A stretch of DNA of 64,000 nucleotides. Origin: a virus (Duplodnaviria; Caudoviricetes). The translations under genes were made by a program, and so were the position numbers. Of this stretch, positions 11,210 through 48,341 are shown piece after piece. Location of the stretch: IMG/VR virus record IMGVR_UViG_3300025679_000005; one strand, given 5' to 3'. The notes beneath the pieces are model-generated. The model did not search any database. It was not told the DNA's origin and saw only the letters and a program-made list of their open reading frames with translations. Numbering within the stretch: position 1 is the stretch's first letter; each line of letters opens with the position of its first letter.

Positions 11210-13588
11210 ATGACTCGCTGTCTACCGTCTCGACACCAGCCCTCCGTGGGTGCGGTGCCTTTTTGTCTGCATACTCGATACTATCAGCCAGATGTCTTCA
11301 AGGAGCTGACAGAGCTAGTGCCCTCAGAGCCACAGGTGGCATTGCTGTTGCCTACAGGCAGCGGTAAGACAACGCTGATTCTGTCTTTCATCGCCTGGGT
11401 GTTCGAGCAGCCAAAGCCACCTTTCTCCGAAGTCTACGTCATCGCCCCTCAGAAGACCGTCCGCGATGGCTTCAAAGGCAATAAGGGGGAGAACCGTCAA
11501 TTCCAAGTCAATCCAGGAGAGGCCTGCTATGAGCTTGTGTCCGCAGAGGATCTGGATTCGAGGACTTCTCTGGACGAAACGGGGGATCTCGATACCAAGC
11601 TTTTAGAAGTGCCCAAACCTGGAACAAAAGTGTGGTTCGCAGAGACTCATGCCAAATTCGCACTTGAGAAGCTGCTCTGCAACTTGCAGAACCACTGCTG
11701 TACTGCTGACTTCCACGGCAAGCTATTGGTGGTGGATGAGGGGCACCACGCCAAGCTGGGCAACAACATCCGAGCCTTCATCGACTATTGGGTGGCCAAT
11801 GGTGGGCACGTACTGTACGCCACTGCCACTCCGGGAGACGGTATCCCTGAGACCGCCAAACTGATCCAACGCACTCTCACTGAGCTAATGGCGCCGCCAT
11901 ACGACCTCCCGCCGTGTGCCCCCACAAGGATCCTATCTAATTTCATCGATACGGGGTTGGCGGAGGACTCCGAGCAAGACGCTGATGGGACTCATTGTGC
12001 TCCTATCGGGACTGAGGCCGAGTTGCGCAATGTCTTCGAGGACATGGCCACTCGCTGGAATGACGCTGGTCGTCCCAAGACTATTGTCCGGATCAAGCCT
12101 AAGCAAGACACTCAGCACAACATCAAAATGCTTCTTATGGCCAAAAAAGCCTTTGAGGACGTAGGTGCGAGAGCTTTTGCCGTCAGAGCTGATGTCAACT
12201 TGAAAACAGGATCCGAAATCAAACGCATTGACGGCTTGATTTCCTCCGAGGACCTCTCAGAAAAGCTGGCTAAGGAGCGCCGTCGGTCGTATTCAGAATC
12301 CGAGTGCGACGTGATCATCACGCTCAACACAATGATTGAAGGTGCCGATTGGCCCCTTTGCAGTCATGTCTACTTGTGGGGCGTGCCCGGCAACTGTCAG
12401 ACCACTGTTCAGGTACTGGGGCGAGCCACTCGTCTAAGGACCGGTATCTCAGACTACCCGCAGCAATGGTGCGAGACCACTCAGATCGTGTTCTTTGTGG
12501 GTGGTGTCTCTGATCTTCGTAATACCCACGGCACTACCATGCTTTTGGTAGGGTGCTCACTAGCTAACTACACTCTAGGTGCTCAATGGTCTACGTTCCG
12601 AGAGCATTTGAAGCTGGTCAAGGAACACCCACAGATCTTGGAACCAGCTCGTGAAGAGGCAACGGCGGTCCCCGCGGAACGTGAGAGAGAGATCAGACTG
12701 GGTATTTCGGGGCTGTCAAAAACCATTGAAAAGTTCCAAAATACCAAGGAAAGGGTGGAGAACTCCGAAGTTCACGAGAGGCGCAAACGGATAATCGAGA
12801 AGCATCTGTCCACTCTTCCAGACGGACCCGAGCGCCGATTTGGCATAAGCTTTGCCCTAGGGGAGTATCCTGGGTATCAAGAGAAATACCGCAAAGCATT
12901 GAGGGGACGCCTTCAAACGGAGAGCTTCAGCGAGGCCCATAAGGCTGTCCTGGATGAACTCCTGGAGCACTTCCTGAACTCAACTGAGGTGCTCCCTAGA
13001 GCGGGGTCCCTAATGGACCTGGAGGATATGGGACTACTCCAGTTGACTGCCCCTGTTCTTGAGGGATTGAAGGACAAGATGCTTAAGGAGTGTCCTCCTA
13101 GGTTGTACCGGAGTAAAGTCATTAACAACACTCAGAGCTTCGTTATCTCGAATCCACACCTGTCCATTTCAGAATTGCTGGATCAACCGGACCCCGCAAG
13201 CCCTGACGGGTACACCTTCAGGGCATACGACGAGGCCATTCGAGCTGGCTCACGTGGCCTGGAGAGGCACGATGACGGCCTAGGCGGTATGGTCTGTGAG
13301 CGAAGCTCGTGGTCCAAGGAATGGGTGACATCAGCTCATCTGGACCAGCTAAAGGGTGGGACTAGTCAAAAGAGGTTCGCTTCAGAGTTTAAGAAACACC
13401 CTTTGGGGTTCTTTTTCGGGCCTCCTATCACCAATCTCCTGAAGGGTCTACCCTTGGATGTCTGTGCCCGTCTGACTGTCGGCGAAGCGGTCCGCATTGG
13501 TCGTTCAGAATGGACTAAGGAGCAATACGCCTCCTTTAAGGGCCGTCTTCAGCACATGACTGTGCAGGAGGCGCTAGATGGCGTCTAA
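11210..13588 (+). CDS. SF2 helicase associated with type I Cascade genes; no HD nuclease domain
   Basis: Motifs I LPTGSGKT, Ia APQK, II DEGHH, III ATATP, V EGADWP, VI QVLGRATR; motif I at about residue 46 leaves no room for an N-terminal HD domain. Confidence 0.85.
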   Translation: MTRCLPSRHQPSVGAVPFCLHTRYYQPDVFKELTELVPSEPQVALLLPTGSGKTTLILSFIAWVFEQPKPPFSEVYVIAPQKTVRDGFKGNKGENRQFQVNPGEACYELVSAEDLDSRTSLDETGDLDTKLLEVPKPGTKVWFAETHAKFALEKLLCNLQNHCCTADFHGKLLVVDEGHHAKLGNNIRAFIDYWVANGGHVLYATATPGDGIPETAKLIQRTLTELMAPPYDLPPCAPTRILSNFIDTGLAEDSEQDADGTHCAPIGTEAELRNVFEDMATRWNDAGRPKTIVRIKPKQDTQHNIKMLLMAKKAFEDVGARAFAVRADVNLKTGSEIKRIDGLISSEDLSEKLAKERRRSYSESECDVIITLNTMIEGADWPLCSHVYLWGVPGNCQTTVQVLGRATRLRTGISDYPQQWCETTQIVFFVGGVSDLRNTHGTTMLLVGCSLANYTLGAQWSTFREHLKLVKEHPQILEPAREEATAVPAEREREIRLGISGLSKTIEKFQNTKERVENSEVHERRKRIIEKHLSTLPDGPERRFGISFALGEYPGYQEKYRKALRGRLQTESFSEAHKAVLDELLEHFLNSTEVLPRAGSLMDLEDMGLLQLTAPVLEGLKDKMLKECPPRLYRSKVINNTQSFVISNPHLSISELLDQPDPASPDGYTFRAYDEAIRAGSRGLERHDDGLGGMVCERSSWSKEWVTSAHLDQLKGGTSQKRFASEFKKHPLGFFFGPPITNLLKGLPLDVCARLTVGEAVRIGRSEWTKEQYASFKGRLQHMTVQEALDGV

Positions 13589-14776: not shown

Positions 14777-14844
14777 CTCCCCAGCTACCTAGGCCGTAAC
14801 AACACCCACATCCGGAACACTTCCCTCCGGTGTATAAGGAACCA

Positions 14845-35958: not shown

Positions 35959-36250
35959 ACGCCCCATTGATCACTGTCATTGGACGAAGGACTGTCCTGG
36001 CGAACTAGATTACCGATCCGGTGGTAGTTACTGCCATACCTGCAAGATCGGTGGGGATTTCGACACCACGTTGGAAGACCGCATCACCTGCCCATTCTGC
36101 GGCGATCAAGACGTGGACTTCACAGACTATCCTCGGGAACTAGAACACGACGGAGACAGCACCACCTACGAATGTGGATCCTGTGAGAAGAACTTCACAG
36201 TGACCCTGAGTGTCTCCTACTCCTATAGTTCAAAGAAAATCCCCGAATGA
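35897..36250 (+). CDS. Zn-finger hypothetical protein
   Basis: YCHTC, ITCPFCG, YECGSCE motifs. Confidence 0.6.
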   Translation: MQRTLNSSNRFRSACLMDRNKRPIDHCHWTKDCPGELDYRSGGSYCHTCKIGGDFDTTLEDRITCPFCGDQDVDFTDYPRELEHDGDSTTYECGSCEKNFTVTLSVSYSYSSKKIPE

Positions 36251-36933
36251 CCGACACTCATAAGTACAAGCCTTGCTATCGTTGTACCGAATACCGTGCC
36301 AACGGAGACTGGGATTCTGCCCTCAAGTGTAGCAACTGTGACGGCAAAGGTGTCGTCCGAACGGCTGCCTCATACGCCTGCAACAACTGTGGCGGGACCA
36401 TGAGCGACGGGGAGGGCGAACAAGGATGGCCGATGGGACTCGTTGAAGAGACTGTAGGTGGAGGCTACAACTCCTTTCATCTCCTCGACTGCACCACGTA
36501 CACGTTCTCCATCTGTGAGAAGTGCCTCAGGGCCATGTTCACAGCCTTCAAGATCCCGCCGACCACGTATAGCCGCCTAGGGGATTCTGGCGGGGGCTAT
36601 GAAGAAGACTTGGACTACTTCCATCAACGCCTCTGGGAGGCGGCTGGCGGAGACGTGGAGCGGCTACTAGCCGGCGGCTGCAACTGGCGAGAGCGTTGTC
36701 AGGAACCGGCGGTCTGGCGATGTCTTTCTTTCGGCAAACTGAGAAGCGAGTGTCGCTGTGATACCCACAAGTGGCATGGAGTCGGCTACGGCGGGGAACG
36801 CCTGGCCAGATTCTCAGATGTTCCCTTTCTCAAGGCTGAAACAGAGGATCAGATAGCTCGCGTAGATTTTGCCTGGAAGACAGGCGCTGAACACCCAATC
36901 GAAGAGGTCGTAAATGAAAACCCAGGCCGATAG
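36247..36933 (+). CDS. Cys-rich protein with DnaJ-like Zn motifs
   Basis: CYRC, CSNCDGKG, CNNCGG, ICEKC. Confidence 0.65.
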   Translation: MTDTHKYKPCYRCTEYRANGDWDSALKCSNCDGKGVVRTAASYACNNCGGTMSDGEGEQGWPMGLVEETVGGGYNSFHLLDCTTYTFSICEKCLRAMFTAFKIPPTTYSRLGDSGGGYEEDLDYFHQRLWEAAGGDVERLLAGGCNWRERCQEPAVWRCLSFGKLRSECRCDTHKWHGVGYGGERLARFSDVPFLKAETEDQIARVDFAWKTGAEHPIEEVVNENPGR

Positions 36934-37216
36934 CATCCTTTCTGAAATAGAGTACCTGAAGCCCCAAGAGGGAGTTTCAGTGATCACCAACTACGGGACG
37001 GAAGAGCTTCGGAAGTTCGCCCGTGGCCTTATTGCCTGCCGTTGTCCCGAGTGTGAGTCCACTGAGGCTATGACAGTGGACAGCAACATCGAGCGCCGGC
37101 TCTGCGGTGGCTGTGGTGCTTGGTACCGCCCTGAGGACATGCTAGTGGTGGCCCTCATCCGAGCTTTCCAAGTGGGGGAAAGCGCCTCAGATGTGGTCCC
37201 AATCGCAAGCCACTAG
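36914..37216 (+). CDS. Small Zn-ribbon protein
   Basis: CPECES...LCGGCG. Confidence 0.6.
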   Translation: MKTQADSILSEIEYLKPQEGVSVITNYGTEELRKFARGLIACRCPECESTEAMTVDSNIERRLCGGCGAWYRPEDMLVVALIRAFQVGESASDVVPIASH

Positions 37217-37843
37217 GATTTCACTGGTAGCTTCAGTGAATAGAACCACATGTGCAAAAGTTTCTTGTGTGGTATTGTCGTACATGTGCAGTCCCAAATG
37301 GATTGCGGTTTTTGAGCAAACCGGGCAGGATACCAATGGCATGTCCTCGTAAGTGCTCCCGGGCTCTAGTTCTCGCAGGTCCATGCTCCGACCCTAGCAC
37401 ATTCCAATGAAGTATCGTATTCGAATCAGTTGAAAGACTTACGACACTACTTCACGTATAGACGCTACCTGAGCTTTCTGGGCTATCCCCGTCCGTTTTT
37501 ACGTTTACAGCCTCAGACAATCACATCAATGATAGAAAAGGGCTTCATGTCCAAGGACTGCAAGGGCTTGGGCTCGGCCGACATCTTCGAGATGACCTGC
37601 TACATGAGCCAGCAACTGGGCTGGGACAAGGTCTCTGCGGCTATTTTCCCCAAGGACAGCCCGTGCCAAATCGCCTAAGGTATCTCCAAACCGATCAGCG
37701 ACACCTCACCCGTAACTTCCTCGGGTTCGGATTCTTCCTAGCCGGCCTAAGTTTATGGGTCCCTCAGCTATCGGCAATGCTGGCCTACGTCGTCGGGCTA
37801 TGGGCTTACTTCTGGACGGGAAACCGCTCAGAAATGCAGCGCC

Positions 37844-38137
37844 TCAAATCCTGAGGTCAATCCCCGTCTTAGCGATCTTGGACGTGTACGTCTCGATCGT
37901 GGAAGTTGTCCAGATCCAGTCGACTACTCCTGCCAACGGGACCAGTAAGGCTAGCAACGGGGGTATGGCGGTCTTGGCCCAAGGCAAGTTCGCTGCCACG
38001 CTGGCTACGAAAAACAGGAATGCAAAAACCAAAGTAGCTATTCCGTAGTGCTTGGGCAAGTTCTTGCGACGAATCGTGTAGGCCGCCCGTTGCGTGTGCA
38101 TTTCAGAGATCTCAAGCCATTCGGGGAGTTTGGTCAT
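37844..38137 (-). CDS. Small membrane protein (two TM segments), start 4 nt after a CasPhi repeat
   Basis: MTKLPEW...; hydrophobic ATLVFAFLFFVASV and PPLLALLVPLAGVV. Confidence 0.65.
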   Translation of the reverse strand: MTKLPEWLEISEMHTQRAAYTIRRKNLPKHYGIATLVFAFLFFVASVAANLPWAKTAIPPLLALLVPLAGVVDWIWTTSTIETYTSKIAKTGIDLRI

Positions 38138-38141
38138 TTCA

Positions 38142-38161
38142 GTCTCAGCGTACTGAGCAAT
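38142..38161 (-). CRISPR. Minimal CasPhi repeat (20-nt hairpin core)
   Basis: ATTGCTCAGTACGCTGAGAC, identical to the 3' 20 nt of the CasPhi repeat. Confidence 0.85.
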
Positions 38162-38184
38162 AAAAAAGCTTTGTGGGCTCGCGG

Positions 38185-39024
38185 TCATTTCACGAGCCTG
38201 AGGAAGCGGCTGCTCCCGTCATTAGGCCTAGCGTGCAAATATCTGGAAGTTGTGGCGATGTTCCGGTGGCCAAGCGAATTTGAAATTAGGGTCAGCGGGC
38301 AACCTGCGTCAAGTGAATGGGACGCATGAGCGTGCCTCAAGAGATGGGGCCAAAGCTTCAACCCAGCCTTTTTGCCAGTGTCCGTGACAATCCGTCGGGC
38401 ATCCCTGGCCGTGAGCTGCTTCCCACGGTAGGATTTGAAGACAGGTGCCTCATCGACTTCGTTATTGCGACGAAGTGTCCTCAGCTCGTCAGCGATCGTG
38501 CTCGGAAGCATGAGGGTTCGAGTTCGGGTGCCCTTCCCCTGTAGGGTGACACGGAAGTCATTGAGGTCTTTGAACCTGATTCTGACGGCCTCGGCGATTC
38601 GTGCCCCGGAGGCGTATAGGAACCGGATGAGGATCTTGTCTCGACCTAGGTCGGCGATTCCAATGAGGCCTCCCACAGCATCTTCCTCCAAGATCTTCTC
38701 ATTCAAGTTATCCGGGATTTTCGGAGTCCTGAGGATTCGGCCGACGTTGAAGACGAGGTACCCCGTCCGGTATCCAAAACTGAGGAGGCTTTTGATCGTG
38801 CTGATCTTCCTAGCGATCGTGGCCGGCTTCCCGTTGAGGGTCTCTGCCCAGGCCATTACCTGGGCCACAGTCGCCCCCTGGAGGCCGTCGGGCAGCTCCA
38901 TGAGGAAAGCCATGGCCACTGGCTTGTAAGCGATTACGGACGATAGGGGACGGCCGCTGAGCCACAGCTTCATCAGCTGTTCATCGGAGGTGGCTCCGGA
39001 GTGGTTTTCCGGTAGATGGTTCAT
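38185..39024 (-). CDS. XerC/D-like tyrosine recombinase
   Basis: Catalytic R (GARIAE), K (GKG), HxxR (HLLRH), H (LGH), Y (TSRY); SAM-like N-domain. Confidence 0.93.
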   Translation of the reverse strand: MNHLPENHSGATSDEQLMKLWLSGRPLSSVIAYKPVAMAFLMELPDGLQGATVAQVMAWAETLNGKPATIARKISTIKSLLSFGYRTGYLVFNVGRILRTPKIPDNLNEKILEEDAVGGLIGIADLGRDKILIRFLYASGARIAEAVRIRFKDLNDFRVTLQGKGTRTRTLMLPSTIADELRTLRRNNEVDEAPVFKSYRGKQLTARDARRIVTDTGKKAGLKLWPHLLRHAHASHSLDAGCPLTLISNSLGHRNIATTSRYLHARPNDGSSRFLRLVK

Positions 39025-39030
39025 TGGACT

Positions 39031-39057
39031 GTCTCAGCGTACTGAGCAATCAAAAGG
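39031..39057 (-). CRISPR. Solitary CasPhi repeat (27 nt) 6 nt upstream of the recombinase ATG
   Basis: CCTTTTGATTGCTCAGTACGCTGAGAC then AGTCCA-ATG. Confidence 0.9.
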
Positions 39058-39327
39058 CTTAGGCTGGTTTACCCCCGGAACGGTGACTTCGATGGGGGTG
39101 ATGCCGTTGTGTGGGACAACGAGGCAGCTCCACGGGTAGGTCTCTTTGTCGACACCTAAGGCCGTAGTGACTTTCACGATCCACATGTCGAGAAGGTGGC
39201 GGGAAGCCAGACCGCAGATGACGCCTGTCCCAGAGACCGGACCCATGGTGAACATCACTGGTTGGCCGTCTACGTAACAGGGTTTGACTTTGCCTTGGAG
39301 GTCGGTTTGCAGTTCGAAGTTGTACAT
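39034..39327 (-). CDS. Hypothetical protein lying between two CasPhi repeats
   Basis: 97-aa ORF with SH3-like composition; stop codon lies inside the repeat. Confidence 0.6.
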   Translation of the reverse strand: MYNFELQTDLQGKVKPCYVDGQPVMFTMGPVSGTGVICGLASRHLLDMWIVKVTTALGVDKETYPWSCLVVPHNGITPIEVTVPGVNQPKPFDCSVR

Positions 39328-39377
39328 GATGAACCTAACGGCAGGGGGCGGCGGGACTTAAGCCCCTGAGGTGGAGG

Positions 39378-40148
39378 GTCTCAGCGTACTGAGCAATCAA
39401 AAGGCTTCGCAGGCTGGGTCTGTCGCGAGCTGGACCAATACGGTGACGTGCTTGTCTCAGCGAACTGAGCAATCAAAAGGTTTCGCAGGATCCAGAGCTA
39501 CCAGGCGCTACAACGGAAGTGGCATCAGTCTCAGCGTACTGAGCAATCAAAAGGTTTCGCAGGAGGCGGTAGTCCTTGATGCTATCGTCGGCAAAGTCTC
39601 GTCTCAGCGTACTGAGCAATCAAAAGGTTTCGCAGGGTCGGGGCGGCGGGGGCAGATTCATCAGACCAAGTACGTCTCAGCGTACTGAGCAATCAAAAGG
39701 TTTCGCAGGAGTGGCCCATAGACCTGGTTCCCTTGGGCGTCCCTCTTGTCTCAGCGTACTGAGCAATCAAAAGGTTTCGCAGGGCCAGGGGCCGGCGGGC
39801 CGTTGTACTGGCCCGGACGAGTCTCAGCGTACTGAGCAATCAAAAGGTTTCGCAGGTTCCTTAGTGGGACTCTTAGAGGATCCTATAAGTAAGAGTCTCA
39901 GCGTACTGAGCAATCAAAAGGTTTCGCAGGGTCGGGTGTTGGAGTCGATGAGGTTGGCTTAGCGTACGTCTCAGCGTACTGAGCAATCAAAAGGTTTCGC
40001 AGGCCCCGACTCCACGGGATCATGTTGGGGATCGATCCTGTCTCAGCGTACTGAGCAATCAAAAGGTTTCGCAGGGCGTCGTGTTCATCGATCACAACTA
40101 CAGGGATCCCCTGTCTCAGCGTACTGAGCAATCAAAAGGTTTCGCAGG
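39378..40148 (-). CRISPR. CasPhi array, 11 repeats and 10 spacers
   Basis: Repeat CCTGCGAAACCTTTTGATTGCTCAGTACGCTGAGAC; 3' end matches the CasPhi repeat family; directly downstream of casPhi. Confidence 0.98.
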
Positions 40149-40239
40149 TCGCACGTCAGAAACAGTGAATTTTCAAAGACCTACCGAATGCTTTGCGAGC
40201 GGTTCGGTAAATTAGAGATCAGCAGGGGGTATTACACCG

Positions 40240-42570
40240 TCATTCAGCGGCTTCAGCATCTTCTTCTGGCTTAAAAGCAGCTTTGCGAGCGCCTACGCTC
40301 TTTTTGGCATCACCGGACCGCTCGCTTTCTGGCTTAGGCATAGGCTTGCCGGTCAGAGCGACTCGTTCAATGTTGTCCGTCGCGATCTCAAGGTCAGCAT
40401 GAGCTACAAAGCCGCACTTCTGGCATGCGAACCGTTCTCCGTCCCGATTGGCCTTGTCACAGTGCCCACATTTGGTACAGGTGATGCTGGTCCGGTGGGG
40501 GGTTACTTCAATGGTTGGGACCCCCTTGTGGGCCCCCAATTCGGTCAAGGACTTGTGGAAGGCTTGCATGAACCAACGATTCTCCCTCTTCTTGATGAAG
40601 AAAGCGTCCCATCCGCCATCAGCCCATTTTCCGTTCCCATGCATCATCTTGATATTGAGGTCTTCGAAGGCCATAACGACGACCTCACATTGAGAGGATT
40701 TTGCTGCCTTGTGTCGCAATTGATTGAGAATGCGCTTCGTCAGTTCTTGTTTCCAGGTTGAGAGTCGGAGGTACTCGGGAGAAGTCCTCTGAAGGTCCCA
40801 TTGTGCCTCCCGATATGCTTCGGCAGCCTCCGGACTCACTTCTATTCGAACACCCTCAGTTCCCTTGAATTTGATGTCTCGTCGCAACATCTCGGGCCTA
40901 TTTTTGGGTTTGAGGGTAGCTACTTTCCGGTCGCCGCCCTTCTCAAGATAGGCCGTAGCAAGGAATTCTGTGTATGGAGTCATCTTGTCCCAAGCGATCA
41001 TCTCCGGATTGAGCCCTAGTGCGGCGCACACCCTAGCCTTACAGAGAGCTGGGGTGTCGTTTTTAGCCCTTAGGATCTCTGACTTATGCTCTGGAGATAG
41101 TCGCTCAACAGCCAAATTGGCCAACTTGTCCCGTAGACGATCACTGGCCACTCGATATCTAGCGATCTCTTTCCCATCGCTGCTGTCATTCGACAGTAGC
41201 TCTCGCAATAATGTCTCGTGGGATAGCTGGCCGTCGCTCAATTGGGTTACCCTAGAGACTTTGGCGGCAATAGGATTGGTTTGACCCAGGTCAATTGATA
41301 CTAGAACCACAGGCCCCGATTTTGTCAACTCGGACAGGATTTCAGGAGCGTTCTTTGTCTTCACCATTTTGGCAGAGCAAGCTTGACCCGCCTTGTAGAT
41401 AAAAGTGCAGACGCCCTGCCGCATGTCGATAGAGGGGTCCCCCGTGAACAGGCTTAGCAAGTCAGGGATCGTGGACTTTTCCTTCAGCAATTTCCGATAG
41501 CGAGCATTTCGCAGCAACCCTCGAATATCGATGATGACCCATTCGTCTTGGAAGCGCATCAATACAGGGATCGCACCTTTGAAGCGCCCCGATTGGATCT
41601 GATCTGTTCTCGAATTCTTCCGGTTTGGTGTTCCGGACCGTTTGGAGCACGTAGCCTTAGGCTTGTTAAGACTTGCCGAGTACCAATCTCGACGGCGCCT
41701 GTTCTTGCGACGATTGAGCAGAGGATGCTGCCACTCGGGCACATACCCCGGCTGTCCCTTTGGAATGGTCATGCGATCGTGAGGCAAGTAGTCCGTGAGG
41801 GCCTCAGCGGACTCTTTGGCAAGGCATCCGCTAGGTAACCCAATAAAGTCACTAGGGCAGGATTTGATCACTACTGCCTGATAGCCTGGAATCGTTTGGT
41901 TCACTCCCGGAGGATGAATCAAGTATCCTCGTTCATCATGGGCTTTCTCCTCCACGAAGGTAGCCTCTTCTCCTGCTTCCTTCCGGCGCTTCGTCTTCGA
42001 CAGATTCTTCTCGTTGCGGTTCTCAACCTTTTTGAGTACGCCCTCTCGAATGCTGATAGCCGATTTGATGAGGGCGTTCTGTGCCTGAGCGTGGAGGCTA
42101 GGGGCGTCCAGTCCCAACACTTCATAGAAGGCAGCTCGGGTTTCCTCATTGAGCTTGGATTTGCCATCAACTTCTAGGGAGGCTACCGCTTCGTTGAAGG
42201 CCGTCTCTGACAGACCATCTTGTTTGGGACGACCCTTGGTAGCGGGGATCCCGAAGATCTTCTCCTGGATTTGACGAGAAACTCGAACGAGGTCCCATTC
42301 GATAAAGGGCCTGCTTTGAGCAATTACGAAGGCTTTGGCGGGCGGTTTAACGTCCTTGAGCTTTGCCTGACCCTTGCCAGTCAGGTAGCTGATGACGGCT
42401 TCGGGTCCGCCATCTCTCAGCTTCTTGCCAGCAATCTTGTAATCCTGGGACTCAAATTTCAAGCCTGGGAAATGCGCCCGCAAAAGCAAAGACAATGGAG
42501 AAGGGGGTGTGGTTTTATTGCTCATGTGCTCTCTGGTCGAAACGGCCGTATTTGACATTTCTATTTGCAA
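40240..42570 (-). CDS. cas12j: CasPhi (Cas12j) type V effector; start probably ATG 42558 or the next Met
   Basis: HFPG, IDIRGLLRNARYR, FTGDP, VSIDLGQTNPI (RuvC I), AFEDLN (II), KKRENRWF, HRTSITCTKCGHC...CQKCG...ADLEIA (III): recognisable CasPhi signatures. Confidence 0.96.
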   Translation of the reverse strand: MQIEMSNTAVSTREHMSNKTTPPSPLSLLLRAHFPGLKFESQDYKIAGKKLRDGGPEAVISYLTGKGQAKLKDVKPPAKAFVIAQSRPFIEWDLVRVSRQIQEKIFGIPATKGRPKQDGLSETAFNEAVASLEVDGKSKLNEETRAAFYEVLGLDAPSLHAQAQNALIKSAISIREGVLKKVENRNEKNLSKTKRRKEAGEEATFVEEKAHDERGYLIHPPGVNQTIPGYQAVVIKSCPSDFIGLPSGCLAKESAEALTDYLPHDRMTIPKGQPGYVPEWQHPLLNRRKNRRRRDWYSASLNKPKATCSKRSGTPNRKNSRTDQIQSGRFKGAIPVLMRFQDEWVIIDIRGLLRNARYRKLLKEKSTIPDLLSLFTGDPSIDMRQGVCTFIYKAGQACSAKMVKTKNAPEILSELTKSGPVVLVSIDLGQTNPIAAKVSRVTQLSDGQLSHETLLRELLSNDSSDGKEIARYRVASDRLRDKLANLAVERLSPEHKSEILRAKNDTPALCKARVCAALGLNPEMIAWDKMTPYTEFLATAYLEKGGDRKVATLKPKNRPEMLRRDIKFKGTEGVRIEVSPEAAEAYREAQWDLQRTSPEYLRLSTWKQELTKRILNQLRHKAAKSSQCEVVVMAFEDLNIKMMHGNGKWADGGWDAFFIKKRENRWFMQAFHKSLTELGAHKGVPTIEVTPHRTSITCTKCGHCDKANRDGERFACQKCGFVAHADLEIATDNIERVALTGKPMPKPESERSGDAKKSVGARKAAFKPEEDAEAAE

Positions 42571-42604
42571 GTGGCTTAAATCGGTGTATCTACTTACACC
42601 GATT

Positions 42605-42666
42605 TCTCGATTGCTCAGTACGCTGAGACTGTGAGCCGCCCTTTTGATTGCTCAGTACGCTGAGAC
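42605..42666 (+). CRISPR. Two-repeat CasPhi mini-array divergent from casPhi, ~12-nt spacer
   Basis: TCTCG-ATTGCTCAGTACGCTGAGAC, TGTGAGCCGCCC, TTTTG-ATTGCTCAGTACGCTGAGAC. Confidence 0.88.
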
Positions 42667-42840
42667 AGCATTGGCAATGGCCTGAGCAACTCTGCGGATG
42701 TCTTCCCTGAGCTTGTCGGTAGGAGTTTCGTCGTAGACTCCTTCCCTGACCCATTTCACCTTTTCAGGCGGGATGTCGTCGAATTCAGGGAAGCAACGAA
42801 AGGTAGCTAGGCGGTGACGATAGCAGACAACAGCGTTCAT
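42652..42840 (-). CDS. Small hypothetical protein ending inside the mini-array repeat
   Basis: 62-aa ORF, ATGA-coupled to the upstream gene. Confidence 0.5.
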   Translation of the reverse strand: MNAVVCYRHRLATFRCFPEFDDIPPEKVKWVREGVYDETPTDKLREDIRRVAQAIANAVSAY

Positions 42841-43715
42841 TGTGCCGGCTGATAGACTGAGAAGTTTCCGCCGACGTACGACTCTTTCTTGTCGTCCAAA
42901 ATATCTGACAAGGACATGATGAAGTCGCCGTTCTTGGTCCGGGCGCCGTCATTGACGAAACCGCCTCGAATTCCTGAGGTGAACATCCACTGGTGTTCCT
43001 TTGGCACACTGTAGTTGATGTCATTGCGAATACCCCCACCCTGGCGAATACCCTCCGCTCGCTTCGAGCCGAAAATCAGGGTGTGGTCTCGCCGAACAAG
43101 CTGATCCATCCTCGGCGGGCTCCCATCGTGAGCGTCAACAGCGGGGGCGAACAAGGTGTTTTCGAAACCAGCTCGGGGCTTGTACCACCAGAAGATGGGC
43201 TCAGCCTCCCTGAGAGTGCTCATATCGAAGCAGCAGATGGCGATCGGCCATTCAGGGTAGAGCTTGGCCATTACCGTCAGGAACGGCATCCGGATGTTTG
43301 GGCGTTTACTCTCCGGCACCTCCTTGAGGGCCGAGTTCAACCCCGCGGCTGAAGATGCCAGGGCGATCGTGTAGGACCCCGACTCGATGATCTGATAACT
43401 CAAAGAATCAGAGTCATTCAGCATAACGCCCTTGATCATCCCAAGGGATCTTCTTGTTCTGGGCTTCAGCGCCTTCACAGCCTTGTGGTAATCCTTGAGG
43501 ATGCCTTTGAAGGCCGTGGCGTCGATCACGTTCTCAGGACCTAGCGGACCCAATGCCGGAATCGGCAGAATCATGGCGTTGGGTCCGTGGCCGAAGGAGG
43601 TCACGCTGTTCTGGTAGCCTAGAACGTGAACGAGGCCGTCCCCAGGTTTCTCGACCTCAGCCGAGTAGATGATTGTATCAGAGAGACTGACTCCGGCTTC
43701 GATGGTACAGCACAT
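42837..43715 (-). CDS. Hypothetical protein
   Basis: 292-aa ORF; promoter motif 11 nt before ATG. Confidence 0.75.
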   Translation of the reverse strand: MCCTIEAGVSLSDTIIYSAEVEKPGDGLVHVLGYQNSVTSFGHGPNAMILPIPALGPLGPENVIDATAFKGILKDYHKAVKALKPRTRRSLGMIKGVMLNDSDSLSYQIIESGSYTIALASSAAGLNSALKEVPESKRPNIRMPFLTVMAKLYPEWPIAICCFDMSTLREAEPIFWWYKPRAGFENTLFAPAVDAHDGSPPRMDQLVRRDHTLIFGSKRAEGIRQGGGIRNDINYSVPKEHQWMFTSGIRGGFVNDGARTKNGDFIMSLSDILDDKKESYVGGNFSVYQPAQ

Positions 43716-43736
43716 GGTGGAGCCTATACACCAGTT

Positions 43737-44513
43737 CTAAGCAATGTGCGAATGCGGATGGGCCTCGCATCGTTCACAAAGTACTATCGAGTCGGGCCAG
43801 CCTTCGAGCATGTATTCTCCAGCGGGTGTGCGTCCGCATCTGCCCTGCTCAGCGAGAAAGCACTCACATGTGAGATTCGGTGACTTGAAAGCACGGATGG
43901 ATACTACTCCCTGCTTGGCAACGGGAAAACAAATCTCACACGAAGCGTTTGGCCCGATCCCACCGTGGTCCGTGCAACGAATGGACATAGCCGTAATGTG
44001 ATCCTTGTGGGACACAGAGTCCTGCGCAAGGGACAGGGGGACCTTGGTGAGCATAATGTCCGCCCAGATAGAGGGCCAGTGATCCAACATCCCCTTGAGG
44101 CAGCGATCCATGTGCTCGATGATCGCTAACGGAGCCCCGTGGGTGTTCCTGGCATAGCTTAGCGACACGGGGCACTCAAGGTACACAAGCTCTGGGACGT
44201 GCCCAAATGCTCTGGCCACATTGATGTACGGGGCCAGGTCGTAGACCATGGCATTGGTGTTGTCGACGATGACCGTGACTTCTTTACCTAGTGGCCGTGG
44301 GTCTCCCATGTAAGGCGAAGCCGTCACCAACTTCACGAACTTGCGAAGACAAGCATGGTGGGCATTCGGGCGCTCTTCGATCTTGAACTCGTACCCGTTC
44401 GGACCTTCATGCCAGTGATCCGCAGAGCAGATCGAGACATCGCCCCAGGTGTTCTCCTTGATCCAGGTGCTTTTGCCGGCGCCCGGGAGGCCTATGAGGA
44501 TGATGACTCGCAT
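43737..44513 (-). CDS. P-loop kinase (AAA_33/polynucleotide kinase-like)
   Basis: GLPGAGKST Walker A, ICSADH, VIVDNTN, SYARNTHG. Confidence 0.85.
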   Translation of the reverse strand: MRVIILIGLPGAGKSTWIKENTWGDVSICSADHWHEGPNGYEFKIEERPNAHHACLRKFVKLVTASPYMGDPRPLGKEVTVIVDNTNAMVYDLAPYINVARAFGHVPELVYLECPVSLSYARNTHGAPLAIIEHMDRCLKGMLDHWPSIWADIMLTKVPLSLAQDSVSHKDHITAMSIRCTDHGGIGPNASCEICFPVAKQGVVSIRAFKSPNLTCECFLAEQGRCGRTPAGEYMLEGWPDSIVLCERCEAHPHSHIA

Positions 44514-44516
44514 GGA

Positions 44517-45116
44517 TCAGCTCTCCCAGGTGGGGGTCGACCAGTGTTCTTGCCAAACATGGACGACAGCAGGCTTTGCCTTCGGCTCGGGTCGGAAATA
44601 AGGCTTCCTGTGATTGGGGTGAGCGCCCATCTTCATCGCGATCTCAGAATCCAGCTCTAGGTTGGAGCCGTTGTACACAGGCTCAGCCGGCCTCTCAGCA
44701 TTGACTTGGGGCTCTGCTGGCTTCTCATAAATCTGCTCTGGCCACATGTCGGTCCATAAAATCTGCTCGGCCCACATATACCCAGGGGCGTTGGCCCTAC
44801 CTTCGCACTTCCACTTACCGGAGTAGGCGTTACAGGCACCTTTACGGACAAGCTCAGACATCGCGACGAAGATGCCCCCTAAGAAAGCCGCTCTTGTACC
44901 AACAGGGAGAGTTTCTGGAAGGATCTTGGGCAACCTGCGAGCCCTGATGCGTTTCCCCATTTCAATGATATCCACAGGGAGAACCGAGGCATGTGGAAAG
45001 CACTCATAGGAGATCACGGCTTCTTTCAGGTCAGACACCCCATATATTGGATCATCAGCCCACTCCAAGATAGCAGCCGTCGCTTCTTTAGCACCGCAGC
45101 ATTCGCACTTTGCCAT
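44517..45116 (-). CDS. Hypothetical protein with N-terminal CxxC
   Basis: GGTG-TAGGAT 10 nt before ATG. Confidence 0.65.
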   Translation of the reverse strand: MAKCECCGAKEATAAILEWADDPIYGVSDLKEAVISYECFPHASVLPVDIIEMGKRIRARRLPKILPETLPVGTRAAFLGGIFVAMSELVRKGACNAYSGKWKCEGRANAPGYMWAEQILWTDMWPEQIYEKPAEPQVNAERPAEPVYNGSNLELDSEIAMKMGAHPNHRKPYFRPEPKAKPAVVHVWQEHWSTPTWES

Positions 45117-45136
45117 GGATCGATCCTACACCGATT

Positions 45137-45397
45137 TCAATGGGGAAGCCCTGAGCCCAAAGTGACAACTCGGTCAATGCTCACGAACATCACCGAACGA
45201 TTGGCGGGGTAGGAGAAGTCGAAGCTATGACAACGCCCGCACTTTGGACAGGTATGCTGATAGATGTCGGCTATTACGTAGACCGAGTCCTGACCCTCGT
45301 CATTGAGGACTTCGCCGCAACCACATAGGAGAACGCACCTTCGCCTGGCCATAGCGGCCCTGGCTTTGAGCCAGTTACGTATTTTATAGATCATCAT
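45137..45397 (-). CDS. Small Zn-ribbon protein
   Basis: LCGCGE...TCPKCG; ATGA-coupled. Confidence 0.55.
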   Translation of the reverse strand: MMIYKIRNWLKARAAMARRRCVLLCGCGEVLNDEGQDSVYVIADIYQHTCPKCGRCHSFDFSYPANRSVMFVSIDRVVTLGSGLPH

Positions 45398-45765
45398 GGG
45401 ATTTCCTCTGTCGAGCTGAGGCGTTCCCACGAGGTGGGCACGACCTCGGCGGTAGTCCGGGGGATGTTCCCCAGAGCCCAATCACAAGCCACGCCAAGCA
45501 CTACCATTACTGAAAAGTAGCTGATTTTATGTTCTTCGAGGACGCTCATCACAGCCTTTTTGACCGCATTGACGTTGGTGTCTCCACCAACGGACTCGAC
45601 CAGGAAGCATACGCCCTCCCCCAAAGTGCCGTTGGTCTCGATCGTAAGCAGGCCGTCATTAGCCATGACCACTGGAGATACCCTGTAACCTTTGTGGACC
45701 ATACTCGCAATAATGGCGTCCGCAAAGGCAGAGGTGAGAATGGTGATGACGACGGTACAGACCAT
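45394..45765 (-). CDS. Hypothetical protein, paralog family with PTSWERL tag
   Basis: Similar to 45770 and 47931 ORFs. Confidence 0.7.
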   Translation of the reverse strand: MVCTVVITILTSAFADAIIASMVHKGYRVSPVVMANDGLLTIETNGTLGEGVCFLVESVGGDTNVNAVKKAVMSVLEEHKISYFSVMVVLGVACDWALGNIPRTTAEVVPTSWERLSSTEEIP

Positions 45766-45769
45766 GACC

Positions 45770-46135
45770 CTATTCCGACTGAGCTAGGCGTTGCCAAGCG
45801 GTGGGTCTGTCCCCTGTTTGGTCGACTACATGGCTCCCACAATGCCAGACACAATCCTTGTCGTCTAGGGACTCACAGACAAGTATCGAGTAGTATACCG
45901 TATGTAATTCCTGTAGTAACCCTCGAAGCTCCTCAGAAACAGCTTCTATGTCTAACTCTTCGTCGCCGTTGTCCATATGAACTGCTAGCGTTGCGCCTAC
46001 TCGGCCCTCCTCTACTTCAACGGCTCGATTGCTTATTGAGATAGGGGATACCGTCCAACCCGTGTTTAGGAATGCGGCGAGGAGGGCATCCGATTGCTGG
46101 GTGGACGGCAGAGTGATTAGTACGAAGTATCTCAC
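45770..46135 (-). CDS. Hypothetical protein, paralog family with PTAWQRL tag
   Basis: As above. Confidence 0.7.
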   Translation of the reverse strand: MRYFVLITLPSTQQSDALLAAFLNTGWTVSPISISNRAVEVEEGRVGATLAVHMDNGDEELDIEAVSEELRGLLQELHTVYYSILVCESLDDKDCVWHCGSHVVDQTGDRPTAWQRLAQSE

Positions 46136-46392
46136 GGAACGTTCTCGAAGGCCTCATTGACCATGGCCGCGTGGCGCTCGTCCTTGAGCGCTTGCTTGGC
46201 GTTCTCTCGGACCTTGGCCTGCTCAGCGACGATAGCATCAAATTCAGCCATCTCATCCTGAGCCTTCGTCCAAGCCTCTTGGGCAGCCTCCCAACGCTTC
46301 AACGTGTCCGCTGGGACATCGTACGAACCCTTTGGATCTACGGAGAAGTTGTAGTCGTAGGCAGTGTCTCGGTCCAGTTTGATCTTGGGCAT
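46132..46392 (-). CDS. Hypothetical protein
   Basis: GGTG-TAGGAT 10 nt before ATG. Confidence 0.65.
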   Translation of the reverse strand: MPKIKLDRDTAYDYNFSVDPKGSYDVPADTLKRWEAAQEAWTKAQDEMAEFDAIVAEQAKVRENAKQALKDERHAAMVNEAFENVP

Positions 46393-46434
46393 GGCCCGAT
46401 CCTACACCGGTTCGCTAGGCTCCAGCTTCTCCTC

Positions 46435-46499
46435 GTCTCAGCGTACTGAGCAATCGAGAGCCTCACTCTACACCGTCTCAGCGTACTGAGCAATCAGCA
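46435..46499 (-). CRISPR. Two-repeat CasPhi mini-array with a 15-nt spacer and own promoter
   Basis: TGCTG-ATTGCTCAGTACGCTGAGAC, GGTGTAGAGTGAGGC, TCTCG-ATTGCTCAGTACGCTGAGAC; TCGGTG-TACTAT immediately upstream. Confidence 0.9.
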
Positions 46500-46533
46500 A
46501 TCACCCATAGTACACCGATAATTTATCTCTTGG

Positions 46534-47088
46534 GTGACATCTCGACGTGATGCAGATATTCGTCCTAGATTGAAGGAATTGCTCAAAGCCACGTCGTTTT
46601 TGATTGACGAACTGGGGATAGGCCATGGCCGAGTCAGGATTGACGTAGCCGCCATCGACACCGACTTCCATGGGTTCGAGATCAAGGCCGAAGCCGATAC
46701 CTTGAAGAGGCTTCCCCGGCAAGTCAGGTACTACAGCAAGGTCTGCGACTTCGCCTCCCTAGTGGTGCCGGCCAAACACTTGGAGAAGGCCACCCCGTTG
46801 ATTCCGGCCTGGTGGGGACTGTACGACGCTGAGACCTTGGCTGTCTTGAGAATGCCACAGAGGAACCCTACGTTGACCCCTAGAGCGATTGCCGAGGTCT
46901 TGTGGAAGGATGAGTCCTTGGCCTTCCTCGCCTCAGCTAAAGCCGGTAAGGGGATGTCCTCTCAGAGAGTGGCCAAGGTCTGGGACCGTGTGGCGAGAAC
47001 CTTTCCCTTGGACGAGATCAGAGCCGAGGTTCGGAGACGGTTAGTAGCCCGTCGGAATGAAGACGGAACCTACAAGCTGAGAGCCTAG
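46534..47088 (+). CDS. sce7726-family PD-(D/E)xK-like protein
   Basis: RVRIDVAAI...FHGFEIKAEADTLKRLPRQVRYYSKVCD family pattern. Confidence 0.8.
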   Translation: MTSRRDADIRPRLKELLKATSFLIDELGIGHGRVRIDVAAIDTDFHGFEIKAEADTLKRLPRQVRYYSKVCDFASLVVPAKHLEKATPLIPAWWGLYDAETLAVLRMPQRNPTLTPRAIAEVLWKDESLAFLASAKAGKGMSSQRVAKVWDRVARTFPLDEIRAEVRRRLVARRNEDGTYKLRA

Positions 47089-47591
47089 ACCTTCTTGGGG
47101 AAGGTCGCCCTTAAAGAGGCAGCCAAGTCATCATAATTGTAGTTGGTTGCTACCTGCTCTGAAGGTTCAGGCCAAGGCTCGACCTCCCACCCACCTAGCT
47201 CACTATACTTCGCGGAGTCGTACTTCACGGCTTCGTCGAAGGCAGCCCTATCAGCGATGTTGACACTCCTGTGACCTGGAGGGTTCAGCACACGGCCGAC
47301 AATGTAGCCGTACTCCGGCTCGACTTCAACATCGACTGGCACGGCCATCATCGGGTTGCTCAGGTCCCAACGCTTGATTGTCGTGGGGCCTAGGGCAACT
47401 TTCTCGAACTCTTCTACGGGAGTGATTACTCGCTCCGCATACCTGGTCTCAACGAAATACCGCTGAACCTTCTTCGGGACTTCGAGGATCTGCTTGGGGA
47501 GGGCGATGACCCTCTCTATTTTGGGTGCACCCCAAGTGAGGAGTCCGGCGAAGGTCGCTGTGAGTGCTTGGAGGAAGGTACGGCGTCGCAT
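47085..47591 (-). CDS. Hypothetical protein with Tat-like signal
   Basis: MRRRTFLQALTATFAGLL. Confidence 0.6.
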   Translation of the reverse strand: MRRRTFLQALTATFAGLLTWGAPKIERVIALPKQILEVPKKVQRYFVETRYAERVITPVEEFEKVALGPTTIKRWDLSNPMMAVPVDVEVEPEYGYIVGRVLNPPGHRSVNIADRAAFDEAVKYDSAKYSELGGWEVEPWPEPSEQVATNYNYDDLAASLRATFPKKV

Positions 47592-47613
47592 AGTCGCCGA
47601 TGTTAGCACACTT

Positions 47614-47934
47614 TCAGGAGCCGAAGCCATCGATCTCGCACTTCCTACAGCCTGCGTTCGTCCAGTTGAAGTGCAGAAATCCTAGTGAGAAGCCGCAGTG
47701 GGAACCGTCATAGTAGATGTGGTAGGATCCCCATCCCCAATCGGTGCTGAGGTATACGGATCGGTAGTCGTAGCCTAGATGCCATTCCGAGGCCTCGTCC
47801 TTGACTTGCACGTTCAGCTCAAAGCCGAAGCCCGTCCAGTGTATACGGTTGACCACGGCTTCTAGCACCCAACGGTACTTGGTGACCTGAGGAACTCTTG
47901 CCAGGATACTCTCTCTGAACTTGAAAATGATCAC
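47614..47934 (-). CDS. Trp/Gly-rich hypothetical protein
   Basis: GTG start overlapping upstream TGA. Confidence 0.55.
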   Translation of the reverse strand: MIIFKFRESILARVPQVTKYRWVLEAVVNRIHWTGFGFELNVQVKDEASEWHLGYDYRSVYLSTDWGWGSYHIYYDGSHCGFSLGFLHFNWTNAGCRKCEIDGFGS

Positions 47935-48341
47935 AGCTCTGGATTCTCCAGGCGTTGCCAAGCGGTGGGTCTGTCCCCTTCCTTTTCTGGGAGAGCCTTG
48001 GACAGAGGGACATTGCCGCAGACCCAACCAGCCCCACCAGCGGGGCCTATGAACAAGGAGAAGTAACCGATTTCAGCCTCATTAAGCAGAATCCTGACTC
48101 TGTCTCGTATCGGACCCGTCTCGGTGATGTCCTTGGCCTCGACTTCAAATACTGAAATCCCTCCAATGAACTCCTCGTTAGCTTCTACAAGATGGGAACC
48201 GCATCTTCGAACAGCCCACCCTTCGGATATCAGCAGAGAAGGCAGCTTTGAAGCCGATTCCGGGATCAAGAACGTGATGACGACGTAGGCTTTCACTTGT
48301 GATGCTCGATCCATTTGAAGGACACTTGAAAGTTGTCCCAA
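47931..48341 (-). CDS. Hypothetical protein, paralog family with PTAWQRL tag
   Basis: 28 nt identical to the 45770 gene 3' end. Confidence 0.65.
   Translation of the reverse strand: MGQLSSVLQMDRASQVKAYVVITFLIPESASKLPSLLISEGWAVRRCGSHLVEANEEFIGGISVFEVEAKDITETGPIRDRVRILLNEAEIGYFSLFIGPAGGAGWVCGNVPLSKALPEKEGDRPTAWQRLENPEL

Follow-up and report, generated by a model that had tools for sequence, protein, structure and literature searches.

Here we describe a CRISPR-CasPhi locus and its solitary repeat units in a 64,000-nucleotide stretch of the IMG/VR virus record IMGVR_UViG_3300025679_000005 (Duplodnaviria; Caudoviricetes). This stretch, hereafter the window, is part of a ~464 kb huge-phage contig from a peat metagenome and represents ~14% of that genome. 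Copies of the array repeat that keep an intact hairpin handle stand outside the CRISPR array at several places in the window, and two of them, units C and D, lie just upstream of start codons in a three-gene block directly behind the array. It is the handle half of the repeat alone that recurs, the two units appear as later insertions into a conserved gene order, and the same pattern is seen in other phages that encode CasPhi. Together, these observations suggest that phage messenger RNAs (mRNAs) probably carry CasPhi docking sites, and we tentatively favour, with confidence somewhat short of even, a reading in which units C and D act as CasPhi binding or cutting sites within one long transcript comprising the array and the genes behind it.

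On the minus strand the locus reads casPhi, a 91-nt leader, an 11-repeat array, a 97-aa open reading frame (ORF), a recombinase and a small membrane protein, with the following coordinates:

40240-42525, minus strand: casPhi (cas12j), 761 aa, matching CasPhi-2 (7LYS) with an E value of 2e-135 over residues 8-751.
40149-40239, minus strand: array leader, with the promoter motif CGGTGTA at 40233-40239.
39378-40148, minus strand: CRISPR array; its 11 repeats measure 36 nt and its spacers 36-40 nt.
39034-39327, minus strand: 97-aa ORF, whose last 17 residues and stop codon come from the unit C insertion.
39031-39066, minus strand: solitary repeat unit C, matching the consensus at 31 of 36 positions, with the recombinase ATG 6 nt downstream.
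38185-39024, minus strand: XerD-like tyrosine recombinase, 279 aa (Pfam PF00589, Phage_integrase, E value 7.8e-28; PHROG integrase).
38132-38192, minus strand: junction of the recombinase and membrane-protein genes, with a 51-nt in-frame insertion; its parts are TGAAATGACC (twice), GCGAG and unit D.
38142-38177, minus strand: solitary repeat unit D, matching the consensus at 30 of 36 positions and identical to it over the 3' 20 nt.
37844-38137, minus strand: small membrane protein, which has 97 aa when counted from its conserved start, as set by alignment with relatives.

The casPhi product also matches Cas12j-SF05 and CasPhi3 and contains the Pfam Cas12f1-like TNB domain, and all 11 array repeats (CCTGCGAAACCTTTTGATTGCTCAGTACGCTGAGAC) end in GATTGCTCAGTACGCTGAGAC, with the spacer directly 3' of this handle. 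With its full-length effector and an adjoining array whose hairpin handle lies beside the spacer, the locus is a type V-J CRISPR-CasPhi system; no Rfam family was matched within positions 36000-48000.

Unit C is identical to the consensus over its 3' 27 nt, its mismatches being confined to the first 9 nt, and is separated by AGTCCA from the recombinase ATG at 39024, while the TGA stop codon of the 97-aa ORF (39036-39034) falls within it. Unit D is followed by TGAA and then by the membrane-protein ATG at 38137; the 10-bp TGAAATGACC is duplicated around it (38192-38183 and 38141-38132), with GCGAG at 38182-38178. A second ATG at 38188 overlaps the recombinase stop codon (ATGA) and reads in frame through unit D, which yields the 114-aa form reported by gene callers, whereas alignment with relatives puts the conserved start at 38137. 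A preliminary description of this DNA had placed two repeats with intact hairpin cores at these positions and these distances from the ATGs, had noted that the 97-aa gene stops within a repeat, and had recognised an intact XerC/D-like recombinase between the two: all of its coordinates hold on the minus strand, and the enzyme is XerD-like. Homologues of the recombinase with 50-86% identity are found on many contigs of huge-phage size; the 97-aa protein had no full-length homologue in a word-based search and belongs to no Pfam or PHROG family.

Beyond these two junctions, the window contains 17 copies of the 19-nt handle core, where 0.03 are expected by chance. Six of the 17 copies lie outside the array, each without a single mismatch, and being cognate repeats in excess of chance they are solitary repeat units. 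Four of them, in addition to units C and D, are arranged as two pairs, each unit with a perfect 21-nt handle:

42582-42666, plus strand: pair B, two truncated units (42609-42629 and 42646-42666) after CGGTGTA, just upstream of casPhi, from which it faces away.
46403-46517, minus strand: pair A, in which two units each combine promoter and handle (handles at 46475-46495 and 46435-46455).

The units of both pairs retain just the 21-25-nt 3' part of the repeat, and a search of the window with the 5' 17 nt of the repeat, allowing up to 3 mismatches, found only the 11 array repeats. In units C and D, the 11 mismatches all fall at repeat positions 2-16 and none in the last 20 nt. What recurs is thus the handle alone, and this core spans positions -1, -2, -17 and -18, those at which the protein contacts the handle (C-1, A-2, G-17 and U-18) in the Cas12j3 structure (PMC8298400). 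Two extra repeat copies are present in the peat DNA reads on other contigs of like depth, and these probably lie elsewhere in the same genome.

The history of the insertions can be read from two relatives that lack CasPhi at this locus, L032 (recombinase 86% identical) and L031 (72%), in which the homologue of the 97-aa ORF, the recombinase and the membrane protein are present without repeats at either junction in a search that tolerated up to 5 mismatches; the block in L031 has one additional gene. In both relatives the recombinase stop codon overlaps the start of the membrane protein (ATGA or TGATG), and exactly there the window carries its 51-nt insertion. Neither of them has the possible 17-residue N-terminal extension that the unit D insertion gives the membrane protein, nor do their homologues of the 97-aa protein have the tail of 17 residues and the new stop codon contributed by unit C. 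Flanking synteny, defined by an AAA_33 gene, a 292-aa gene and a gene for a DNA-binding protein, shows that the slot filled by casPhi and the array, immediately upstream of this conserved block, is variable. Since the same block is free of repeats in L031 and L032, sequence comparison identifies units C and D as derived insertions between genes that were already neighbours: the repeats came later, and the array did not take up the genes. For junction C, L032 can be aligned in more than one way: it may contain a deleted remnant (CAGCC-AAG...GCTGAG), and loss of unit C from L032 instead of gain in the window is possible. A duplication such as that at unit D was sought by eye at unit C and at the units of three other CasPhi loci (L006, L008 and L010), and none was seen.

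This history bears directly on the three readings offered by the preliminary description, namely that CasPhi processes the polycistron and controls its translation, that the genes were captured into the array, or that the recombinase uses the repeats as attachment sites in an integron-like cassette array. The repeat-free block of L031 and L032 argues against capture, the window showing instead insertions at two junctions of a conserved block. An integron-like role is unlikely, since the recombinase keeps its syntenic place where repeats are absent; the enzyme is moreover XerD-like and not IntI, the bounding sequences are CRISPR repeats, and units distant from any recombinase occur in this and in other genomes. 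Comparison of the gene content between repeats among relatives, as that description had proposed, finds the block the same where the repeats are missing, which speaks against both capture and cassettes.

Transcription of the region is best approached through the heptamer CGGTGTA, of which the window has 29 copies where 3.6 would be expected (~8-fold), usually 9-12 nt 5' of an ATG and often after a terminator-like hairpin (for example at 14828, 15319, 27079, 32609, 45133 and 53983). Its position suggests that it is probably a phage extended -10-type promoter, and a promoter so placed would imply many leaderless or nearly leaderless phage mRNAs. The motif stands before the array leader, pair A, pair B and, on the strand opposite to the latter, casPhi (42595-42601). 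In pair A, the 19-nt 'spacer' carries CGGTGTA, and the ATG at 46392 has a third motif 10 nt in front of it; because its 'spacer' itself bears the promoter motif, this pair may represent two promoter-handle units rather than a targeting mini-array. Upstream of casPhi, two opposite-strand copies at 42582-42601 form the palindrome ATCGGTGTA-tctac-TTACACCGAT, one directed toward casPhi and the other toward pair B, and these overlapping promoters could be mutually exclusive.

Pairs A and B follow this predicted promoter motif, whereas units C and D have none. On the minus strand between the array and the three-gene stretch we found no CGGTGTA, no sigma-70-like promoter and no terminator-like site. 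In L031, TGGTGTA lies 13 nt before the ATG of the 97-aa homologue, a place where the window has no motif. The uninterrupted stretch behind the array, taken with the motif in L031, suggests that a promoter once belonging to the three genes has probably been lost and that they are now transcribed by read-through, as the tail of the precursor CRISPR RNA (pre-crRNA).

The pattern is not confined to the window. Ten further CasPhi loci or records, with effectors 31-58% identical, were compared; the IMG/VR relatives among them were found with an alignment query, a single-protein search of IMG/VR having returned no CasPhi relative. Out-of-array units are present in 7 of the 10, or 8 of 11 counting the window, with none in G004 and G005 (whole records) or in L012 (~22 kb of the locus). 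L004 has one unit, 2.4 kb past its array; L006 has one unit 5 nt and another 20 nt 5' of ATGs; in L008 a unit that two genes separate from the array lies 2 nt 5' of an ATG; and whole-record searches found 9 units in G003 and 1-2 in G001. G002 contains one unit and, upstream of casPhi, a five-unit mini-array distinct from the main array, which lies downstream of the gene. Of the three units in L010, one, in the stretch 13193-13330, is a full 37-nt repeat placed in frame in the N-terminal region of a Dam-like D12 methylase, between its KWAGGKY and EPFLGGG (EPFxGGG) motifs and behind a response-regulator gene. Four such units are identical in independent assemblies of other samples and therefore no assembly artefact. 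In front of many units stands the (C/T)GGTGTA motif or a TTGACN-17-TAnnnT promoter, and a same-strand start codon lies within 20 nt at 5 of 11 sites, for which random placement gives a rough P of ~2e-5, a statistic that could partly reflect where insertions are tolerated in packed operons. The exact 21-nt handle also occurs, solitary or paired, on three other metagenome contigs (L001-L003), two of its copies lying in or next to transfer RNA (tRNA) genes; the 21-mer has no match in IMG/VR or GTDB genomes, and neither the DNA nor the CasPhi protein has one among INPHARED phages.

Several further features of these loci are recorded here in their own right. Handles stand directly before tRNA genes or short tRNA-like acceptor/T-arm minihelices in L001 (1163-1250), L022 (G003 228545) and L002 (1624-1760), and these minihelices are not called by ARAGORN. 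L024 and L025 (G003 242052 and 243439) and L019 (11450) share an upstream piece, ttggcttgGTGTAGTCA.GCACTCA, which extends over ~80 nt in L024 and L025, and the promoter-plus-handle module seems to have been copied as a whole in the three. The mini-array of G002 (L030, 82333-82553) is irregularly spaced, at 46-59 nt, with a TTGACT-17-TACAAT promoter in front. At the trailer end of the 27-repeat array in L006 (14339-14727), the array dissolves into irregular, partly degenerate units before the next gene. In L004 (12368-13894) the first six of 21 repeats have the loop GTGCGC versus GTACGC, and the 5' part comes in two variants that alternate blockwise, which suggests array fusion or recombination. 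L008 (19305-22358) carries Cas3-like and Cse2-like genes ~7 kb from casPhi, and in the same genome as the window two TnpB/OrfB_IS605-like genes (L005 18196-18660 and 20903-22063) lie near the CasPhi locus, ~6-10 kb beyond the membrane-protein gene.

In light of these results, of the three readings first proposed, CasPhi processing and translation control stays the best supported, because only the handle recurs, because other phages show the same pattern, because neither promoter nor terminator separates the array from the genes, and because there is a synthetic precedent. We propose that the three-gene block directly behind the array would be read as a continuation of the pre-crRNA and that each unit would retain the ~20-nt hairpin handle gripped by CasPhi. 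Cutting of pre-crRNA by the RuvC site has been reported for CasPhi1-3 (PMC9943656) and, in the work cited as ref. 7 of PMC8298400, for Cas12j1 and 2; CasPhi could likewise bind and cut the units as it does array repeats, thereby splitting the long RNA into separate messages. It might then stay on each new 5' end, where the start codon, 4-6 nt downstream, would fall within the stretch that otherwise holds the guide, so that expression of these genes would depend on CasPhi occupancy. Blocking of the start codon, and hence repression, seems the most likely outcome, with stabilisation of the 5' end also possible, and in yeast CasPhi-2 reduces the expression of an mRNA bearing its repeat (PMC9943656). 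When CasPhi is absent, ribosomes could still couple across both junctions, because the stop codon in unit C lies 9 nt before the next ATG and an ATGA overlap precedes unit D.

Several observations weigh against this proposal. The 5' half of the repeat is degenerate in units C and D and missing from pairs A and B, and CasPhi may or may not cut such units. The hairpin by itself is weak, with 5 bp, a UACG loop and a z-score near 0, so that any function should depend on the protein. The closeness of units to start codons could be a survival filter, insertions persisting at junctions and in tolerant loops, and the 97% identity of the handles is partly built in, as the other units were found by searching for the core. 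Pair B and the units at L004 16251 and L010 9449 are antisense to their neighbours, for which the favoured model offers no explanation, and the only sequencing run containing this DNA is the peat DNA metagenome.

One alternative would be that array copies spread by illegitimate or microhomology recombination and persist, functionless, where they do no harm, namely at junctions whose start codon is restored, as loops in frame or in gaps between genes, a reading that we consider unlikely. Unit D is what such a process would leave, 51 nt inserted in frame together with a 10-bp duplication, so that stop and start codons are both restored, and the same can be said of the in-frame repeat in the L010 methylase ORF, of a relic of the 5' half alone in L004 (14306-14322) and of CasPhi phages with no solitary units (G004, G005 and L012). 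Intact handles would on this account mean that the copies are young or have been homogenised by gene conversion with the array. All six extra copies in the window, however, have a perfect handle, and not one is a relic of the 5' half; units C and D divide their mismatches 11 to 0 between the 5' part and the last 20 nt; four units have a promoter motif of their own, with the predicted start at or just before the handle; and lineages whose repeat sequences differ acquired the pattern independently. It is also conceivable, if quite unlikely, that the units are guide-RNA genes, each unit and the ~20 nt after it guiding CasPhi to partly or fully complementary DNA, either for non-cutting repression of phage or host promoters, in the manner of CreR, crlRNA and mini-array guides, or for attack on rival phages. 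Pairs A and B do resemble promoter-driven mini-arrays, as does the five-unit mini-array upstream of the G002 casPhi, regulatory solitary repeats are documented beside cas12a (PMC10120712) and in type I systems (bioRxiv 10.1101/2024.12.27.630466), and RNase P could set the 3' end of the unit that lies 42 nt before a tRNA in L002. Seven guides (mini-array spacers and mRNA-derived), however, gave matches only at chance level across the 64-kb window, or ~14% of the genome: guide D has a 10-nt match on the side of the protospacer-adjacent motif (PAM), after TCG, at the duplicated junction 51 nt upstream, but this is a by-product of the duplication. The 'spacer' of pair A, being a copy of the promoter motif, may just drive the second unit, and the guides that units C and D would supply match the genes of the closest relative too poorly to attack them.

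As buffers or decoys for CasPhi they could tune the phage's own enzyme or, on L001-L003, disarm that of a rival in the manner of RNA anti-CRISPRs; the exact handle does occur on those contigs, with no casPhi visible in the fragments examined, and RNA anti-CRISPRs made of solitary repeats are reported for almost all CRISPR types (PMC10651486). We hold this to be very unlikely in a phage that encodes the cognate CasPhi together with a working-looking array, where self-inhibition would be costly, and placement at gene junctions or inside an ORF would not be needed for it. Exchange of cassettes, with the repeats serving as sites for the adjoining recombinase or as portable homology by which genes move, draws on the position of the recombinase between two units and on three lineages (L008, L010 and the window) where the array's last repeat and a further repeat enclose genes. 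It appears extremely improbable, given that the recombinase and both its neighbours keep the same order in repeat-free relatives, that units lie far from any recombinase, with none among the genes called beside the L008 and L010 units, and that the homology kept amounts to only 20-27 nt. In the one metagenome holding this DNA, the junction contig carries both units unchanged; this peat DNA run contained no variant lacking the units, and what it did show were contig breaks at repeats and the two extra repeat copies.

It is possible, if doubtful, that CasPhi has a second job in huge phages, namely RNA processing and translation control that would couple gene expression to CRISPR interference. 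Solitary handles would then be spreadable 'operators' tying the recombinase, the methylase, tRNA clusters and casPhi itself to the level of free CasPhi. Work on CasPhi has dealt almost solely with genome editing, and little is known of its biology in huge phages; were the proposal true, a DNA-targeting Cas12 would have been naturally reused for post-transcriptional control of its carrier's genes, and a very small (21 nt) RNA operator would be ready for synthetic circuits. The repeat-free relatives in addition give a rare view of how repeats spread, here as a clean insertion into a stop-start overlap, accompanied by a 10-bp duplication.

Solitary repeats and two-repeat mini-arrays outside arrays have been described in viruses and in cas loci; a promoter often stands directly in front of them, and some lie beside an effector gene (Faure et al. 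2019, cited in PMC10651486; Shmakov et al. 2023, PMC10120712). Some of them regulate genes for defence or cas genes, and others serve as RNA anti-CRISPRs (PMC10120712, PMC10651486, bioRxiv 10.1101/2024.12.27.630466). Pairs A and B correspond to such solitary repeat units or standalone repeat-like elements. Unlike the known cases, the units described here match the phage's own type V-J effector, and several sit within operons, where they occupy stop-start junctions, the interior of ORFs or tRNA clusters; PMC10120712 and PMC10651486 contain no mention of type V-J or Cas12j, and the literature searched contains no report of cognate solitary repeats inside the operons of a CasPhi phage. RNA anti-CRISPRs (Racrs; Camara-Wilpert et al. 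2023, PMC10651486) are likewise phage-encoded repeat mimics and bind Cas proteins, but they mimic host repeats to inhibit host immunity, whereas the units here mimic the repeat of a phage-encoded Cas protein and share their phage contig with the cognate casPhi and its array. CreR/CreTA, crlRNAs (bioRxiv 10.1101/2024.12.27.630466) and Cas12a-adjacent repeats (PMC10120712) resemble our proposal in linking Cas proteins to the expression of neighbouring genes through repeat-derived RNA. These, however, use a partly matching promoter target and a PAM, whereas units C and D lie in the mRNA itself, and within the 64 kb there is no match above chance besides the 10-nt duplicate made by the insertion.

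In phage MS2, the coat protein acts on a hairpin operator at a start codon. Units C and D share with that operator, and with engineered CasPhi-2 or Cas12a repeats in untranslated regions (PMC9943656), the principle that a protein-bound hairpin in or near the start region governs the message. These precedents are either engineered or use dedicated RNA-binding proteins, whereas a natural counterpart for CasPhi has no report in the literature searched. Solitary repeats as such are known; what is new here is their setting, in the operons of the very phage that encodes the cognate CasPhi.

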